64,000 bases of DNA from SAR202 cluster bacterium (lineage in GTDB: Bacteria; Chloroflexota; Dehalococcoidia; Lucifugimonadales; UBA3495), in assembly GCA_016872385.1 (NCBI GenBank), contig VGZV01000006.1, positions 768 to 64,767 on the forward strand, in the 5' to 3' direction. The notes beneath the pieces were generated by a model that did no database searches, was not told where the DNA came from, and saw only the letters and a list, made by a program, of their open reading frames with translations. Below, one piece after another: positions 5,495 to 60,526 of this stretch. The position numbers and the translations under genes were made by a program. Numbering within the stretch: the stretch's first letter is position 1; every line of letters starts with the position of its first letter.

Positions 5495-6769
5495 TCACCC
5501 CGAAGGGGCAAGGTCGTACATGGACTCGCCCAGCCGCACCCTGCCCGGTTGGTCCAGCAGGGCGCGGGCAATCCTGGCCCGGTGCTCAAAGCTGGTGCCC
5601 ATGCGCATAGTCCAGGAGGACACCCGCCGGAACCACAGGTTCAGGTTAAACTCAGCCATGAACCCTATGCCGCCGTGGATTACCTGGGAGGAGCGCACCA
5701 CTGCCTCGCACTTGTCGTTGGCGAAGGCCTTGGCCTGGGATATCTCGATACTGGCGGGCAGCCCCTGGTCCATACGCCACAGGGCTTCGTAGGTCAGCAG
5801 CTGGACACCGTCTACCCAAACAATCATGTCGGCGCACAGGTGCTGGATGGACTGGAAGGCCCCAATGGGCCGCCCAAAGGCCACCCGGTTCTTGGCGTAG
5901 TCAATGCCCATCTCCGCATCCTTGCGGGTGGCGCCCAGCATCTGGGCGCACAGGAGGATGGTGCCCCGGTCCAGCATTCCTTCAATCACCGGCCAGCCCT
6001 GGTGCAGCCTTCCTACCAGGCTGGAGGCGGGGACAGCTACACGGTCAAAAGTCACCCGGCTCTGCTTGTCTTTGACCATGGTGCCCAGGGGCGTGTGGGA
6101 AATGCCAGGCAGGTTAGTATCCACCAAGAAAAGGGATAGGCCAGCTTCACTCCCCTGGGCTGAAATCCCCCCAACCCCCCTTTGCAAAGGGGGGCTAGAC
6201 AGTCCCCCCCTTTCGTAAAGGGGGGTCACGGGGGATTTGTCTCCACTGACAGGCGCAGTGCGGCAAGCCACCAGGAATTTCTGGGCGGCGTTGAAGTTGT
6301 CCACAAACATTTTAGTGCCGGAAATGACGTAGCCGTTGCCCTGGGGCGTGGCCTGGGCGTGCACCGTTTCAGGCAGCAAGCGCGGGTCAGTTTCCAGCAG
6401 TGCCCAGGTAAGGACCATGTCTCCCCTGGCCACCGCGGGCAGCACCTCTTTCTTCTGCTGCTCGCTGCCGTCTTTGGCAATGGTCAGAGCCGCCATCATG
6501 GTGCTGTGGAAGGGCACGGGGGCAATGGCCCGGCCCAGCTCTTCAAAAATCAGGCCCAGGTAGGCCAGAGGCAGGCCCTGGCCGCCATAGGCTTCCGGCA
6601 AGGCCAGGCCCAGCCAGCCCAAATCAGCCAGCTTCTTCCACAGCGCCGGGGGATAACCCAGGTCGTCGGCCTCCATAGCCCGGGCCATTTCCGGGGGGCA
6701 TTCCTTTTCCAGGAACTCCCGGGCCAGGTTTTTGAGCATTTGCTCTTCTTCGTTAAGCAGTACGTCCAT
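5495..6769 (-). CDS. Acyl-CoA dehydrogenase carrying an in-frame repeat-derived loop insertion
   Basis: ACAD-like throughout. Preferred start is the ATG at 6769 (MDVLLNEEEQ); the longer ORF to 6835 runs into a GC-hairpin repeat. About 30 extra residues lie between CRT and GLSLFLV compared with the neighbouring ACAD. Confidence 0.85.
   Translation of the reverse strand: MDVLLNEEEQMLKNLAREFLEKECPPEMARAMEADDLGYPPALWKKLADLGWLGLALPEAYGGQGLPLAYLGLIFEELGRAIAPVPFHSTMMAALTIAKDGSEQQKKEVLPAVARGDMVLTWALLETDPRLLPETVHAQATPQGNGYVISGTKMFVDNFNAAQKFLVACRTAPVSGDKSPVTPLYERGGLSSPPLQRGVGGISAQGSEAGLSLFLVDTNLPGISHTPLGTMVKDKQSRVTFDRVAVPASSLVGRLHQGWPVIEGMLDRGTILLCAQMLGATRKDAEMGIDYAKNRVAFGRPIGAFQSIQHLCADMIVWVDGVQLLTYEALWRMDQGLPASIEISQAKAFANDKCEAVVRSSQVIHGGIGFMAEFNLNLWFRRVSSWTMRMGTSFEHRARIARALLDQPGRVRLGESMYDLAPSG
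6163..6238. repeat. GC-hairpin repeat family B, embedded in frame in the ACAD coding sequence
   Basis: AAATCCCCC...GGGGGATTT terminal inverted repeat enclosing hairpins CCCCCCTTTGCAAAGGGGGG and CCCCCCCTTTCGTAAAGGGGGG. Translates as KSPVTPLYERGGLSSPPLQRGVGGI. Confidence 0.8.
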
Positions 6770-6874
6770 GACCGTCCAAGAACCCCCATCCTGACCTTCC
6801 CCCTTGGCAATGGGGAAGGAATAAGTCTCTCCCACTTAACCGGGGGATATTTAGAAGGGGCAGCTTGCGAGTTT

Positions 6875-25789: not shown

Positions 25790-28700
25790 ATGGGATGGTT
25801 TGCAAACCTGCCGCTGGTGGTCACCCAAATAATCCGCCAGCGGCGGGTTTTTGTTTCTCCGGCAACCTGGCTGCTGCTGGCGATCCTGGCAGCAGCCCTG
25901 GCCCTGCGGCTGTACGGGATTAACTGGGACCAGGGCTACGGCTTCCACCCCGACGAGCGCTCCATCTACATGCGAGCCGGCTGCATGTACGACCTGCTGG
26001 TACAGGCGCCTGGCTACCAGGAGTGTCTGCGGGACCATCCCCAGACCCAGCCGGGCTTCCCCAGCCTGGGCGTGTTCCTGGACCCCCAGCGCAGCCCCCT
26101 TAACCCTCACTGGTTCCCCCTGGGCAGCATCCTGATTTACGCCCTGGTGTACCTGCGCTCTATCCTGGAGCTGTTCACCAACCTTTCCGCCCTGGACATG
26201 CGCTACGCCGGAAGGCTGTTGTCCGCCCTGGCGGACGTTGGCAGCGTTTATCTGGTTTTTTTGCTGGGGAAGCGCATGTATGGACAAGGCACGGGCCTGC
26301 TGGCCGCCGCCTTCGCCGCCTTTGCCGTCATCCACATCCAGAACAGCCACTTCTACCGGCCCGAGACTTTCTCGGTGTTTTTTACCCTGGCGGCTTTCCT
26401 GGCAATGCTGCGGATGATCCAGTACGGGCGCTGGCGGGACTCGGCAATACTGGGCTTGCTGGTGGGACTGGCCCTGGCCCCCAAAGTGAACGTGCTGCCT
26501 TTGCTGCTGCCCCTGGCGCTGGTCTATGGGTGGCGGTGGTATGACCTGGCGCGGCAAAAATCCCCCAAACCACCCTTTGAGAAAGGGGGGCTACAAAGAC
26601 CTTCACCGCGCTGGGGCCAGTCTTTTTCGCCCCTTATTAAGAAGGGGTTAGGGAGGATTGCCAGCGCCCAGCTTCTGGCCGGTCAAGCCGCCCTGGCCGC
26701 CGTAGTTGCCCTGGCAACCTTCTTTGCCGCCAGCCCTTATGCGCTGCTGGACTTTAAATCTTTTGTGGCGGACCAGATAGCCCAGGCCAACATGGCAAAC
26801 CATGCTGGCCTTTGGCCCTTCACCATCCAGTACGTTGGCACTACGCCCTTCCTGTACCAGATGCGTCAGAGCATAACCTGGGGGCTGGGCGTGCCGCTGG
26901 GACTGGCCGCCTGGGCCAGCATCCCCTTTACAGCAGCGATGGCCTTTCTGCAAAAGCAGACCTGCCGGGCCGACTGGCTGCTGCTGGCGTGGATACTCCC
27001 CAGCCTGCTGCTGCTGGAGAGCTTTGAAGTACGGTTCCTGCGCTACCTGTTCCCGCTGATACCCTTTATGCTGCTCTTGGCGGCACGGATGCTGGTGTGG
27101 CTGGCCGTAGCCGCCACGCAACGACTAGATGACGCTGGAAAAGCTCAGTTGCCCTCCGCCTCACCGGAAGAGGGCCAGGGCGAGGGCCGTCAACCCCCCC
27201 CTTTGCCCCCCTTTTTCAAAGGGGGGTTGGTGGGATTTGCGCCACGGAAACTCCTGGCCTGGACGCCGACGCTGCTCATCGCCCTGGTGATGCTGGGCAC
27301 GGTTTTTTACGCCCTGGCCTTTATGCGCATCTACGCCAGGCCTCATCCGGCAATAGCCGCTTCCCAATGGCTCCGGGAAAACGTGCCCGCCGGGAAGGCA
27401 ATAGCCAGCGACAACCACTGGGACGAGTTCATCCCAGGGTTGTACCAGTACCAGGTCTGGCAGTATCCCGCATACGACGCGGATTCCGCCGAGAAGATGA
27501 CCACCCTGGCGCGCCAGCTAGCAAAGTCGGAGTACCTGGTTTTCTACAGCCAACGGCCCTTCGCCAGCGTCAGCCGCGACCCCCAGCGGTTCCCCCTGAG
27601 CGGACATTATTACCAGCAGCTTTTTGCCGGAAAATTAGGCTACCAACTAGAAAAGAAGTTCATATCGTACCCGGAGTTGCTGGGCGTGGCCTTTCAGGAC
27701 GACCCTTATACCTGGTCAGGGCTGCCCAAACCCAGCCCAGCCCAGCCGGAACCAGGGTCGCTGCTGGCCCTGAACCTGGGCTACGCCGACGACAACGTGG
27801 TGGGCTACGATCACCCCCAAGTGCTGGTGTTCCGGAACACGGAGCGGCTGTCCGAATTATCGCTGCGGGCCCGCCTGACACCCTCGCGCCAAAGCCCAGA
27901 CTCCGGAACTGACCAGGGGCTGATGCTTTCTCCAGAACAGGCGGCGGCCCAGCGCAACGGCGGCGCCTGGTCAGAGATTGTCCACCGGGACTCGTGGACC
28001 AACAAACTGCCGGTACTGGCGTGGCTGCTGGCGGTGGAGGTCATCTACATGGCCAGCCTGCCCCTGGCCATGTTCCTGTGCCGGCCCCTGCCTGACCGGG
28101 GGATAGTCCTGGCCCGCATCCTGGGCCTGCTGGCAGTTTGTTACGTGGCCTGGCTGCTGGCCAGCCTGGGCTGGGTCCAGTTCTCCCGCACGGGCATCTG
28201 GTTAGGGATTCTGACAGTGGCAGCCCTGTCCGCCGTCGCACTAGCCGCTCACTGGCAGGAAATCCGCCAATTCCTGAAGGCCCGCTGGCGGTTGCTGCTT
28301 TTGGGTGAAGCTTTGTTCCTGGCCGCCTTCCTGGCCTTTGTCTTGCTGCGGGCGGCCAACCCCGACCTGTGGCACCCCTACCGCGGCGGCGAAAAACCTA
28401 TGGAACTGGCTTACCTGAATGCAGTGGCGCGCTCCAGCCTGATGCCCCCCTACGATCCCTGGTTCGCCGGGGGCTACCTGAATTACTACTACTGGGGCTA
28501 CTTCGTGGTGGCGGCGCTGGTGCGAATCACCGGCATAATACCCACCACGGCATTCAACCTGGCAGTCCCCCTGTTTTTTGCCCTGACCTTCACCGGGGCC
28601 TTTTCTCTGGTTTATAACCTGGCGGCGGCGACAATCCCCTCTCCAGCAATAAGGAGAAGGGGAAATGGAACAACAATTTCAACGGAGCAAGGCTTGAACG

Positions 28701-30538
28701 AATCCGCTCGTCCTGAGCCTGTTGAAGGACGAGTCACAAGTCCGCTCATGGTTCGACAAGCTCACCATGAGCGGTGGAGGCTGTTCAGTTCCGTCTTGGG
28801 AAGACCCAGTTCCTGGCCGCCGGTTACCGCCGGGCTGCTGGGAGGGCTCATGGTAGCGGTCATGGGCAACCTGGACGGGGTAGTGCAACTGGCCCAGGGC
28901 GCATGGCGAAAGCTGGTCCTGGGGCAGCCCTTCCCAGCCTTTGATTTCTGGCGCAGCAGCCGCATGGTGCCGGACCTGCCTGCGTTTGACCCATCGCCCC
29001 TGGCCTTCTGGATGCCAGGCCACGCCCCAGGCGCGGCGGAGGTATCGCCCCACATCACCGAGTTCCCCTACTTCACTTTTCTGTTTGCCGACCTGCACGC
29101 CCACATGATGGTCATCCCCTTCACCCTGCTGGCGCTGGGCCTAGCCCTAACCCTGGTACTGGGGCTGCGGCAGGCTAAAAGCTGGTGGGCCATGTCCGCC
29201 ACCGGCGTCCTGGGGCTGGCGCTGGGATCGCTGTGGGTAATCAACAGCTGGGACTACCCGGCCTACTTGCTCCTGATGGCGGCGCTGCTGGGACTGGCGG
29301 CGTGGGCCGCGCCCGGCGGGGCGGTGTTCCGCGCGGGATTGTGGCTGGCCATGTGGGCCGCAGTGGTTGCAGTAAGCGTACTGGCCTTCTGGCCCTTCCG
29401 CCAGGCCTACCAGACCTTTGACCCCGGCCTGGCTCCATCCCTTTGGCGGACGCCGCCTGAGCGGTATTTCGCCATTCATGGGGTGTTCCTGCTGGTGGCG
29501 ATAGTGCATCTGGTCCAGCAGTGGCGTGATGCACGCCACTCCCCAACTCCCCCTTTGCAGAGCGGGATCAAAATTGTTCTCCCCTTTAGTAAAGGGGGGC
29601 TGGGGGGATTTCTAATTCTGGCCCTGGGAGCGTTGGCGGCAGTCTATCTGGCGGCGGCGGGCTACTGGACGGCAGCCACGCTGACACTGGTGCTGGCCTT
29701 CACCATCAGCGCCGCCGGAAGGGAGTTGAAGCGCGACGCCCAAAGTGGGCCATGCTTGCCAACGGTAGCCTCCCTGGTCCTGCTGGGCATGGCCCTGTCC
29801 ATTGGCATTGGCCTGGACCTGGCGCGGCTAAACGGGGACATTGGGCGCATGAACACCTTCTTCAAATACTACCTGGAAGCCTGGGTGCTGTTTGGCGTAG
29901 CTAGCGCATACCTTCTGTGGCGTCTGGGAGCAACAGGATTTTTCCGCCAGGGGTTGGCAGGCAAAGCAACTTTGGGTATTATGTTATTGTTTTTAGTGGG
30001 CAGCTTGATTTACCCGGCGCTGGGCGCCCGCGCCCGGTTGGCTGACCGTTTCAACCCAACCGCGTTGACGCTGGACGGCACGGCCTATATGCGCCAAGCC
30101 GTTCATATGGAAGAAGGGCAGCCTATCGCCCTGGAGTACGACCTGGAGGCCATACACTGGCTCCAGGACAACGTTCAAGGGTCGCCAGTGGTGCTGGAAG
30201 CCCACCACGAGCAGTACCACTGGAGCAGCCGGATCTCTGTCTATACCGGCCTGCCGACAGTGCTAGGATGGCCGTGGCACCAGATTCAGCAGCGGGGCGA
30301 CAGCACTGCTGTTTACCGCCGGGCGGCAGATGTGCGGGAAATTTACAGCACTGTGTCGGTGGAGCGGGCCCAGGCATTGTTGCAACAGCACCAGGTGCGG
30401 TACATAGTGGTGGGCGAACTGGAGAGGGCTTACTACCCTGCGCCTGGTCTGACCAAATTCGAAAGTATGACGCGCCAGGGGTTGATTACCCTGGTGTACC
30501 AGAATCCAAGAGTGCAAGTTTACCGCACGCCCTGGTAG
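25790..30538 (+). CDS. Giant polytopic membrane protein: N-terminal GT-C/ArnT-like region plus DUF2298 / Chlor_Arch_YYY domain
   Basis: 1582-aa ORF with dozens of TM segments and the hallmark FAGGYLNYYYWGYF (YYY) motif. Contains four in-frame repeat-derived segments. Confidence 0.8.
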   Translation: MGWFANLPLVVTQIIRQRRVFVSPATWLLLAILAAALALRLYGINWDQGYGFHPDERSIYMRAGCMYDLLVQAPGYQECLRDHPQTQPGFPSLGVFLDPQRSPLNPHWFPLGSILIYALVYLRSILELFTNLSALDMRYAGRLLSALADVGSVYLVFLLGKRMYGQGTGLLAAAFAAFAVIHIQNSHFYRPETFSVFFTLAAFLAMLRMIQYGRWRDSAILGLLVGLALAPKVNVLPLLLPLALVYGWRWYDLARQKSPKPPFEKGGLQRPSPRWGQSFSPLIKKGLGRIASAQLLAGQAALAAVVALATFFAASPYALLDFKSFVADQIAQANMANHAGLWPFTIQYVGTTPFLYQMRQSITWGLGVPLGLAAWASIPFTAAMAFLQKQTCRADWLLLAWILPSLLLLESFEVRFLRYLFPLIPFMLLLAARMLVWLAVAATQRLDDAGKAQLPSASPEEGQGEGRQPPPLPPFFKGGLVGFAPRKLLAWTPTLLIALVMLGTVFYALAFMRIYARPHPAIAASQWLRENVPAGKAIASDNHWDEFIPGLYQYQVWQYPAYDADSAEKMTTLARQLAKSEYLVFYSQRPFASVSRDPQRFPLSGHYYQQLFAGKLGYQLEKKFISYPELLGVAFQDDPYTWSGLPKPSPAQPEPGSLLALNLGYADDNVVGYDHPQVLVFRNTERLSELSLRARLTPSRQSPDSGTDQGLMLSPEQAAAQRNGGAWSEIVHRDSWTNKLPVLAWLLAVEVIYMASLPLAMFLCRPLPDRGIVLARILGLLAVCYVAWLLASLGWVQFSRTGIWLGILTVAALSAVALAAHWQEIRQFLKARWRLLLLGEALFLAAFLAFVLLRAANPDLWHPYRGGEKPMELAYLNAVARSSLMPPYDPWFAGGYLNYYYWGYFVVAALVRITGIIPTTAFNLAVPLFFALTFTGAFSLVYNLAAATIPSPAIRRRGNGTTISTEQGLNESARPEPVEGRVTSPLMVRQAHHERWRLFSSVLGRPSSWPPVTAGLLGGLMVAVMGNLDGVVQLAQGAWRKLVLGQPFPAFDFWRSSRMVPDLPAFDPSPLAFWMPGHAPGAAEVSPHITEFPYFTFLFADLHAHMMVIPFTLLALGLALTLVLGLRQAKSWWAMSATGVLGLALGSLWVINSWDYPAYLLLMAALLGLAAWAAPGGAVFRAGLWLAMWAAVVAVSVLAFWPFRQAYQTFDPGLAPSLWRTPPERYFAIHGVFLLVAIVHLVQQWRDARHSPTPPLQSGIKIVLPFSKGGLGGFLILALGALAAVYLAAAGYWTAATLTLVLAFTISAAGRELKRDAQSGPCLPTVASLVLLGMALSIGIGLDLARLNGDIGRMNTFFKYYLEAWVLFGVASAYLLWRLGATGFFRQGLAGKATLGIMLLFLVGSLIYPALGARARLADRFNPTALTLDGTAYMRQAVHMEEGQPIALEYDLEAIHWLQDNVQGSPVVLEAHHEQYHWSSRISVYTGLPTVLGWPWHQIQQRGDSTAVYRRAADVREIYSTVSVERAQALLQQHQVRYIVVGELERAYYPAPGLTKFESMTRQGLITLVYQNPRVQVYRTPW
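26558..26659. repeat. Family B GC-hairpin repeat in frame within the DUF2298 CDS
   Basis: AAATCCCCC...GGGAGGATT ends, hairpin CACCCTTTGAGAAAGGGGGG. Translates as KSPKPPFEKGGLQRPSP...PLIKKGLGRI. Confidence 0.7.
27192..27238. repeat. Family B GC-hairpin repeat (half element) in frame within the DUF2298 CDS
   Basis: CCCCCCTTTTTCAAAGGGGGG followed by GGTGGGATTT. Translates as PPPLPPFFKGGLVGF. Confidence 0.65.
28704..28775. repeat. Family C palindromic repeat in frame within the DUF2298 CDS
   Basis: CTCGTCCTGAGCCTGTTGAAGGACGAG and CCGCTCATGGTTCGACAAGCTCACCATGAGCGG hairpins. Translates as SARPEPVEGRVTSPLMVRQAHHERW. Confidence 0.75.
29541..29611. repeat. Family B GC-hairpin repeat in frame within the DUF2298 CDS
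   Basis: CTCCCCTTTAGTAAAGGGGGG followed by GGGGGGATTT. Translates as SPTPPLQSGIKIVLPFSKGGLGGF. Confidence 0.7.
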
Positions 30539-31053: not shown

Positions 31054-31140
31054 GCCAGGTTCAACCACAGTCAAGCAAGTGGGGCGAGTACTGAACTCGC
31101 CCCGCTTCATTTTGCGCCCCAGGCAGGATGTGCTTCAGAG

Positions 31141-31255
31141 GGTGTGTGACCATTCTCGCTCGTGGTGAGCTTGTCGAACCATGATCGGAAATGATCCGCC
31201 CATCCTTCGACAAGCTGAGGACGAGCTGACAATGTAACGGCAGTTCTCACACGTA
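31141..31255. repeat. Palindromic repeat family C element with GTGTGTGA / TCTCACAC ends
   Basis: Degenerate TTGTCGAACCATGA and TCCTTCGACAAGCTGAGGACGAGC hairpin cores between GTGTGTGACCATTC and CAGTTCTCACACG. Confidence 0.6.
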
Positions 31256-45134: not shown

Positions 45135-45220
45135 CCCGCTCATGGTTCGACAAGCTCACCATGAGCGGGCCTGACCCCACGGCGCCACTGCCCTCGCCCT
45201 GAGCCTGTCGAAGCGCGGCC
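45135..45220. repeat. Palindromic repeat family C
   Basis: CCCGCTCATGGTTCGACAAGCTCACCATGAGCGGG plus a degenerate CCTGAGCCTGTCGAAGCG unit. Confidence 0.7.
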
Positions 45221-54591: not shown

Positions 54592-54674
54592 AGCTTGTGT
54601 GACGATTCCCGCTCATCCTGAGCTTGTCGAACCACGGGCGGGCTGGGTAGACGGCATTTCTCACACAGGCTCTT
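54590..54674. repeat. Family C element with 20-bp terminal inverted repeats
   Basis: AGAGCTTGTGTGACGATTCC...GCATTTCTCACACAGGCTCT ends around a CCCGCTCATCCTGAGCTTGTCGAACCACGGGCGGG hairpin. Starts within the stop codon of the preceding gene. Confidence 0.7.
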
Positions 54675-60398: not shown

Positions 60399-60526
60399 AG
60401 AGCCTGTGCCAAAAGTGCCCGCTCATGGTTCGACAAGCTCACCATGAGCGGGCTAAAAGCTACTCATCCTTCGACAAGCTCAGGATGAGCGGGCTGGGTA
60501 GACCGCATTTCTCACACAGGCTCTAA
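60399..60526. repeat. Family C element (double hairpin) with terminal inverted repeats
   Basis: AGAGCCTGTGCCAAAAGTGC...GCATTTCTCACACAGGCTCT around CCCGCTCATGGTTCGACAAGCTCACCATGAGCGGG and CTCATCCTTCGACAAGCTCAGGATGAGCGGG. Confidence 0.75.

Follow-up and report, generated by a model that had tools for sequence, protein, structure and literature searches.

How can an open reading frame (ORF) take in four copies of dispersed repeats, drawn from two families, and still be read from end to end? The question is raised by positions 25,790 to 30,538 of a stretch of DNA of 64,000 nucleotides (nt), hereafter the window, from a SAR202 cluster bacterium (Chloroflexota; GenBank assembly GCA_016872385.1, contig VGZV01000006.1). 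This 4.7-kb ORF encodes a large membrane protein of 1582 amino acid residues (aa), in which the original prediction, made from the letters of the window, placed three family B repeats and one family C repeat, all translated in frame. It further held that four independent insertions without a stop codon or frameshift are unlikely unless frame-compatible insertions are selected, or the elements are biased to be stop-free. The analysis reported here makes it highly probable that the gene has been hit repeatedly and that purifying selection has sorted the outcomes, as with the Rickettsia palindromic elements (RPEs). Two families of small, non-autonomous palindromic repeats, which fill the intergenic DNA, would have struck a functional gene of the tandem GT-C-like type again and again; insertions would survive only where they are in frame, free of stops and situated in dispensable, disordered and probably cytoplasmic loops, and the survivors would now be translated as Pro/Gly-rich or basic loop extensions.

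The gene and its four repeat copies

The source genome (G000) is a metagenome-assembled genome (MAG) of 2.70 Mb in 111 contigs, with an estimated completeness of 97%, and the window lies on its contig C6. Repeat profiles were built from intergenic copies only and run with nhmmer over the whole 2.7-Mb genome, the E-values being genome-scale. They match the in-gene segments with E-values from 1e-6 to 6e-10, which identifies these as copies of the intergenic families and bears out the three-plus-one assignment at the predicted positions (Table 1); the peptides quoted in the original prediction agree exactly with the translation. Site 1 has the termini AAATCCCCC...GGGAGGATT and contains two CCCTTT..AAAGGG-type hairpins plus a middle hairpin, an architecture which is that of 100-103-nt copies elsewhere in the genome; its second hairpin (~26626-26659) is too decayed to score by itself. 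The reading of the RWGQSF stretch as native sequence between two insertions was rejected, as other copies share the 102-nt architecture. Site 2 aligns with 28 single-hairpin copies and site 4 with genomic two-hairpin copies of 70-78 nt, the left hairpin (29541-29575) and left terminus of the latter having decayed to the point where that half alone is unscorable. Site 3 corresponds to the two-hairpin core of a 123-nt miniature inverted-repeat transposable element (MITE) of family C with a shortened spacer; its termini are not recognizable, and this copy has the two inner hairpins only, without terminal inverted repeats or a 3-bp target duplication. All four segments fold as hairpins, at -25 to -41 kcal/mol and with z-scores of -2.0 to -4.3.

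The N-terminal half of the host protein matches Pfam PMT_2 (1e-11; 45.7 bits vs a cut-off of 26.1), and Foldseek places its fold with STT3/AglB/PglB/ArnT (E 2e-9 to 4e-5). The C-terminal half belongs to DUF2298 (PF10060, residues 784-1368; 7e-105, 352 bits vs a cut-off of 27.8) and is a full member of NCBIfam TIGR03662, Chlor_Arch_YYY (residues 741-1580; 529.8 bits, above the cut-off of 300.25). The score of the protein for TIGR03663, the flippase-associated Agl23 family of NCBIfam, is 26 bits, far under the cut-off of 126.25. The protein contains the stretch YLNYYYWGYF with the NYYYWGYF (YYYxG) motif, which lies in a long conserved loop predicted to be external. AlphaFold modeling of the two halves gave predicted template modeling (pTM) scores of 0.81 and 0.84, and the DUF2298 half returned weaker structural matches to STT3/DPY19/AftA (E 2e-4 to 5e-3). 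Because this half is weakly GT-C-like by fold, the protein looks like two GT-C-type modules in tandem with a soluble domain after each. As modeled, it shows the features of the GT-C superfamily, namely a polytopic fold and a conserved acidic first external loop; the loop after the first transmembrane helix (TM1) carries the invariant residues W46, D47, D55, E56 and R57. Both the ArnT/GT-C-like N-terminal half with the NYYYWGYF motif and the description of a large, conserved, uncharacterized putative glycosyltransferase had been proposed from the sequence, and the Pfam, NCBIfam, Foldseek and orthologue data agree that this is a real, conserved GT-C-like protein. In the literature searched, no DUF2298 member with a demonstrated activity was found, and mentions of the family are incidental only. 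A DUF2298-only paralogue of ~800 aa is also present in every genome searched.

A whole-protein relative occurs as one open frame of 1450-1685 aa in 28 of the 29 genera of the order, contrary to the possibility, raised with the original prediction, that the gene is normally split in orthologues. The combination of PF13231 (PMT_2) and PF10060 is found in all of the 120 best database homologues, the lengths of which are mostly 1480-1620 aa. With orthologues 55-65% identical, synonymous sites are saturated for a ratio of nonsynonymous to synonymous substitution rates (dN/dS), and the retention of invariant columns was used as the measure of selection. The protein keeps 306 of the 315 columns (97%) that are invariant among 40 homologues, which argues that the gene is functional and under purifying selection, and is not a pseudogene.

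These data bear on the view that the inserts arose by short-read misjoining of repeats, or that the gene is decaying. The MAG comprises 111 contigs, and repeats are a classic source of misassembly; nevertheless, such an explanation is scarcely credible. All four inserts are in frame and stop-free, 97% of the invariant residues are retained, five contigs of public assemblies agree on the identical 1582-aa protein, and related genomes, assembled independently, have inserts of this kind in those loops too. It is on the five public contigs that the apparent continuity of the assembly rests.

Positions of the inserts in the protein and its relatives

Alignment with 21 orthologues reveals a clean insertion at site 1, for which none of the 21, the two same-genus genomes included, has a counterpart; the loops that hold sites 2, 3 and 4 are those which vary most in length. 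The segments are therefore insertions relative to the orthologues; the suggestion that they might be conserved native sequence, unrelated to the intergenic repeats, is contradicted by the variable loops together with the profile matches. The predicted local distance difference test (pLDDT) score of the AlphaFold model is below 50 at all four sites (residues 262-280, 466-482, 959-994 and 1254-1268), and the inserts accordingly appear in the model as loop segments compatible with the fold, the kind of position described for RPEs.

A model of 27 TM helices, derived from hydropathy, DSSP helices, the positive-inside rule and analogy with GT-C enzymes, places the N-terminus inside, and the acidic loop after TM1, the YYY loop and both soluble domains outside. 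The density of lysine plus arginine, scored on orthologues only so that the inserts cannot bias it, is 0.169 in the predicted "in" loops vs 0.079 in the "out" loops. The inserts occupy loops 06, 10, 16 and 22, each of which is an "in" loop in the model, and a family C unit in the orthologue from genome G020 maps to loop 18, another of this class. All four insert loops are probably cytoplasmic, and the model thus answers in the affirmative the question, posed with the original prediction, of whether the segments would fall in loops on one side of the membrane.

The same loops carry repeats in other genomes. The site 3 loop of the G001 orthologue holds a family B element (E 6e-8) where G000 carries family C, and the site 2 loops of G002 (E 3e-7) and G004 hold B elements read in other frames (RGVRGDF, PLPKGGIRG). 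Beyond these two, approximately nine further homologues have B-type elements in the site 2 loop, again in other frames; overall, B- or C-type peptides are seen in about ten of the 120 database homologues, for the most part in that loop. Orthologues from the same genus possess repeats of their own in the same loops, either in other frames or from another family. Such differences argue that the hits are recurrent and independent, the same loops having been struck in several lineages with no particular peptide conserved. The claim of four independent insertions holds for sites 1 and 3, whereas site 2 may be older or recurrent, because the G001 and G002 orthologues have B-like elements there in another frame.

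Recurrence of this sort could also be taken as a sign that the inserts are kept for a function, whether the hairpins act at the level of mRNA or DNA (for example by pausing translation while the protein enters the membrane, stabilizing the mRNA or serving as recombination sites) or the peptide acts as a PPxxKGGxGG linker or recognition motif. The hairpins are preserved in all four copies (z -2.0 to -4.3), many diverged orthologues also have B-type elements in their site 2 loop, and the density of inserts is ~80-fold above the coding average. Yet frames and families differ within the same loop, so no peptide is conserved; most orthologues are without any insert, site 1 being unique to G000; and the hairpins of sites 1 and 4 have partly decayed, which fits neutral drift. 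We consider a retained function unlikely, the inserts being presumably neutral. A bolder proposal is that, throughout one class of the Chloroflexota, hairpin repeats land again and again in the cytoplasmic loops of the tandem GT-C family, and that the hairpins or the Pro/Gly-rich peptides may be useful there, for example in pacing the translation of 27 helices or in tuning loop length. This too is improbable; if true, the repeats would be a standing source of protein-loop innovation and not mere passengers.

The repeat families and the survival of the frame

Family B consists of one hairpin nested in another, AAATCCCCCC-nn-CCCCCTTTnnnAAAGGGGG-nn-GGGGGGATTT (core form also AAATCCCCCC..CCCCTTTnnnAAAGGGG..GGGGGGATTT), with single copies of 44-46 nt and two-hairpin or composite forms of ~76 and ~102 nt. 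Approximately 105 hairpin loci of this family are found in the genome; the hairpin count is 160 in the real genome vs 8 in a shuffled one. Its distribution is patchy. It is abundant in two genomes of the same genus and in five to six other genera of the family, and it was detected in only six of 201 genomes sampled across the phylum, all six in the same class.

The family C unit, of which the genome holds 339, is a hairpin of 33 nt; its loop, TCGACAAGCTC, scarcely varies. Stem positions 9-10/24-25 are GG:CC or CC:GG in equal shares, that is, they are compensatory variants. Two units, one inverted, form the core of the 123-nt MITE, which is bounded by terminal repeats, GAGCNTGTGTGAGAA...TCACACANNCTC, and flanked on either side by TTA/TAA. 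There are 59 complete genomic copies with terminal inverted repeats and a 3-bp target duplication, the length classes being 123 nt (14 copies) and 156 nt (24 copies, with a nested insert). Together with the 3-bp TTA/TAA duplication these MITEs come to 126 or 159 nt, both multiples of three; length alone would thus never shift the frame, yet the consensus has stops in six of six frames.

Neither family matches Rfam 15 at the gathering threshold. Family C has sub-threshold similarity to the Rfam family AaHKsRNA41 (Aggregatibacter small RNA 41; 29 bits at window 31075-31232 and 18 bits at 28706-28772, cut-off 97), and that family may in turn derive from a related repeat. The exact 29-nt family C pattern GCTCATSSTTCGACAAGCTCASSATGAGC occurs in the genomes of many phyla, the carriers among the matches listed being Acidobacteriota, Planctomycetota, Elusimicrobia, Dongiaceae (Alphaproteobacteria), Deltaproteobacteria, a Leptolyngbya and Lindowbacteria. 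That a hairpin with an unchanging loop is shared by so many phyla hints at a recognizing protein of wide distribution. Literature searches with the family C DNA core and with its peptide translations returned nothing relevant.

Whether such elements are rarely closed by stop codons can be judged against random pieces of this 62% GC genome, of which 77% (33 nt) and 70% (45 nt) of frames are stop-free. For intergenic family B copies the values are 76% over all lengths and 83% for single hairpins; 38% of the intergenic single-hairpin copies are open in all six frames vs 13% of random 45-mers, and the consensus itself is open in six of six (KSPQPPFAKGGWGD, NPPNPPLQRGVGGI, IPPTPLCKGGLGGF). Family C units, at 62% vs 77% for random 33-nt pieces, show no such bias. 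No frame of the full 123-nt MITE consensus is free of stops, and therefore an intact MITE could not be read through; the core found in the gene is open in three of six frames. The frame used at site 3a is closed by TGA in 58% of copies, and the in-gene copy is a GGACGAG stem variant without this TGA. Because that variant is common among intergenic copies, no rescue mutation has to be assumed. The six-frame translation of the consensus proposed earlier has given opposite answers for family B and the family C MITE.

With the further constraint that one length in three preserves the frame, roughly a quarter of family B insertions and a seventh of family C insertions would be expected to preserve the frame. 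As the main cause, a strong stop-free bias is rejected for family C, and in family B the bias is no more than moderate. The principal filter is selection, with a moderate compositional bias helping in family B only, and the preservation of the frame is mostly survivorship, purifying selection having removed the insertions that broke it. Of the two explanations offered in the original prediction, selection stands, and so does a moderate bias in family B; bias in family C does not, and "unlikely" was an overstatement in view of the 70-77% of random frames that are open.

The 1582-aa gene is not alone in carrying repeats. Our own gene calls (2335 genes, 80% of the genome or 2.17 Mb coding) place 19 of the 339 family C units (5.6%) inside genes, mostly at ORF ends, in a genome that is 80% coding. 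For family B, 24 of 105 loci are gene-internal, spread across 15 genes; these comprise the 1582-aa gene and 14 others, and copies inside conserved ORFs with the frame unbroken, which is a hallmark of RPEs, are thus present here. Ten hosts were confirmed by Pfam: MutS2, PRAI, both xanthine-dehydrogenase-type subunits, a CitMHS permease, RecG, ValRS, an FAD oxidase, a Mg-chelatase/VWA protein and RluD. Essential genes, ValRS, RecG and MutS2 among them, tolerate family B elements. In the acyl-CoA dehydrogenase-like ORF of the window, coding potential is positive on both sides of the element (Table 1).

Several points weigh against the account of repeated hits and purifying selection. The 1582-aa gene alone combines three separate B sites with one of family C. 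Approximately 23 internal events per 2.17 Mb of coding DNA give an expectation of ~0.05 per 4.7-kb gene; four are seen, an excess of ~80-fold, so that tolerance alone may not suffice and a target preference is possible. Site 4 shows no net gain in length over the loops of the orthologues, and may represent an insertion plus a deletion, or an older event. Finally, the cytoplasmic placement of the loops is a modeled topology, drawn from hydropathy, helices, charge and GT-C analogy. The density of inserts is most simply explained by the long dispensable loops of this protein.

A preference of that kind would mean that loops coded by C- or G-runs (Pro/Gly), or old remnants of repeats, attract new copies through site preference or gene conversion. 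The loops of relatives at sites 2 and 3 are indeed Pro/Gly-rich (C/G runs; PPPPPSP, GEGPPPP), and repeats nest elsewhere, the 156-nt family C MITE with its nested insert being an example. By comparison, site 1 has no Pro/Gly context in the orthologues, and neither a target-site duplication nor a consensus target was found when the genomic copies of family B were searched for them. As a rival, targeting is very unlikely; it is compatible with repeated hits under purifying selection and does not replace them.

Table 1. Coordinates of the gene, its repeat copies and other features named in the text. Positions without a contig label are those of the window; C labels are contigs of the source genome (G000).
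Feature	Position	Strand	Translation and remarks
ORF, apparent tandem GT-C-like membrane protein	25790..30538	+	1582 aa, intact, stop-free frame
N module, PMT_2/STT3-like			PMT_2 (Pfam) residues 125-244
C module, DUF2298/Chlor_Arch_YYY	28010-30535		aa 741-1582
Site 1, family B composite, 102 nt	26558..26659		QKSPKPPFEKGGLQRPSPRWGQSFSPLIKKGLGRI, aa 257-290; nhmmer match 26558-26592, E 1.6e-6
Site 2, family B single hairpin, left terminus decayed	27192..27238		PPLPPFFKGGLVGF, aa 468-483; nhmmer match 27197-27238, E 2.9e-8
Site 3, family C two-hairpin core	28704-28775		
Site 3a, family C hairpin unit, reverse	28704..28733	-	ARPEPVEGRV; nhmmer E 2.4e-6
Site 3b, family C hairpin unit, loop TCGACAAGCTC	28742..28774	+	PLMVRQAHHER; nhmmer E 5.8e-10
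Site 4, family B two-hairpin (76-nt type)	29541..29611		PTPPLQSGIKIVLPFSKGGLGGF, aa 1251-1274; nhmmer match, right hairpin 29579-29611, E 2.7e-7
Acyl-CoA dehydrogenase-like ORF	5495-6835	-	in-frame 76-nt two-hairpin family B element, 6163-6238 (SGDKSPVTPLYERGGLSSPPLQRGVGGIS)
Complete family C MITE, examples	60399-60526; C1:29625-29747		
GCTCATSSTTCGACAAGCTCASSATGAGC-type family C hairpins	45135-45170; 60418-60494; 54608-54644; 31157-31230		
ValRS	C37:15037-18051	-	two family B inserts within the catalytic tRNA-synt_1 domain span
RecG	C2:75957-78494	+	112-nt family B composite near the N-terminus
Y1/RAYT-like transposase ORF	C13:34416-34868 (locus L143, 1438-1890)	-	150 aa; HVHGI and NFYEH motifs
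DUF2298-only paralogue	C48:5825-8134		~800-aa type

Comparison with known repeats and meaning of the inserts

RPEs, in work of 2000 and 2002 reviewed in PMC10969869, are described as multi-copy, non-autonomous palindromic repeats that occupy intergenic DNA and also, in frame, unrelated housekeeping genes, whose proteins thereby gain additional peptide segments where the fold allows them; one genome can hold several families. The likeness to the present case lies in dispersed multi-copy palindromes, in in-frame copies within unrelated genes and in the coexistence of families B and C. The two sets of elements have no sequence relationship, RPEs measuring ~100-150 nt vs 33-102 nt for the in-gene elements of G000, and the hosts differ in that Rickettsia is obligately intracellular whereas G000 represents a free-living freshwater Chloroflexota bacterium. 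A further difference is that the G000 gene has four inserts from two families and that the same loops have been hit again in orthologues. By analogy, the phenomenon would be that of the RPEs in an unrelated lineage, brought about by unrelated and much shorter elements.

Two other systems were considered. The complete family C copies resemble the MITEs of the IS5 family (3-bp TNA target duplication) in their terminal inverted repeats and TTA/TAA flanks, and transposition is the probable means of spread; the in-gene copy differs in consisting of two internal hairpins without recognizable terminal repeats. Repetitive extragenic palindromic (REP) elements, associated with Y1-type transposases (REP-associated tyrosine transposases, RAYTs), are likewise short GC-rich extragenic hairpins in hundreds of copies, with which the compensatory stems of family C may be compared. 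The only Y1-transposase-like ORF found in the genome (Y1_Tnp, 29.5 bits) is, by contrast, flanked and interrupted by a GTAG-tagged hairpin family that is neither B nor C: one copy (GTAGGGGCGACGTATGCGTCGCCCCTAC) stands just past its stop codon and a second, read as VEATHTSPLQ, lies in frame inside it. A RAYT as the mobilizer of families B and C was rejected, since this sole candidate has a different cognate hairpin.

What is new in the present case is that a single gene has taken up four inserts from two families, that these are restricted to loops predicted to be cytoplasmic, that orthologues show recurrence, and that at least 15 genes are affected. The finding opens no new mechanism. It would extend the RPE-style colonization of coding DNA beyond reduced intracellular genomes to a free-living Chloroflexota bacterium with a 2.7-Mb genome, where ValRS, RecG and MutS2 are among the genes affected. 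For annotation, it implies that PPFxKGGxGGF and RPEPVEGR/MVRQAHHER peptides in database proteins are translations of repeats and not domains. For the DUF2298/Chlor_Arch_YYY tandem GT-C family, the inserts would provide a natural map of five dispensable, probably cytoplasmic loops, and such a map of permissive positions may be useful for tagging, truncation and structural work.

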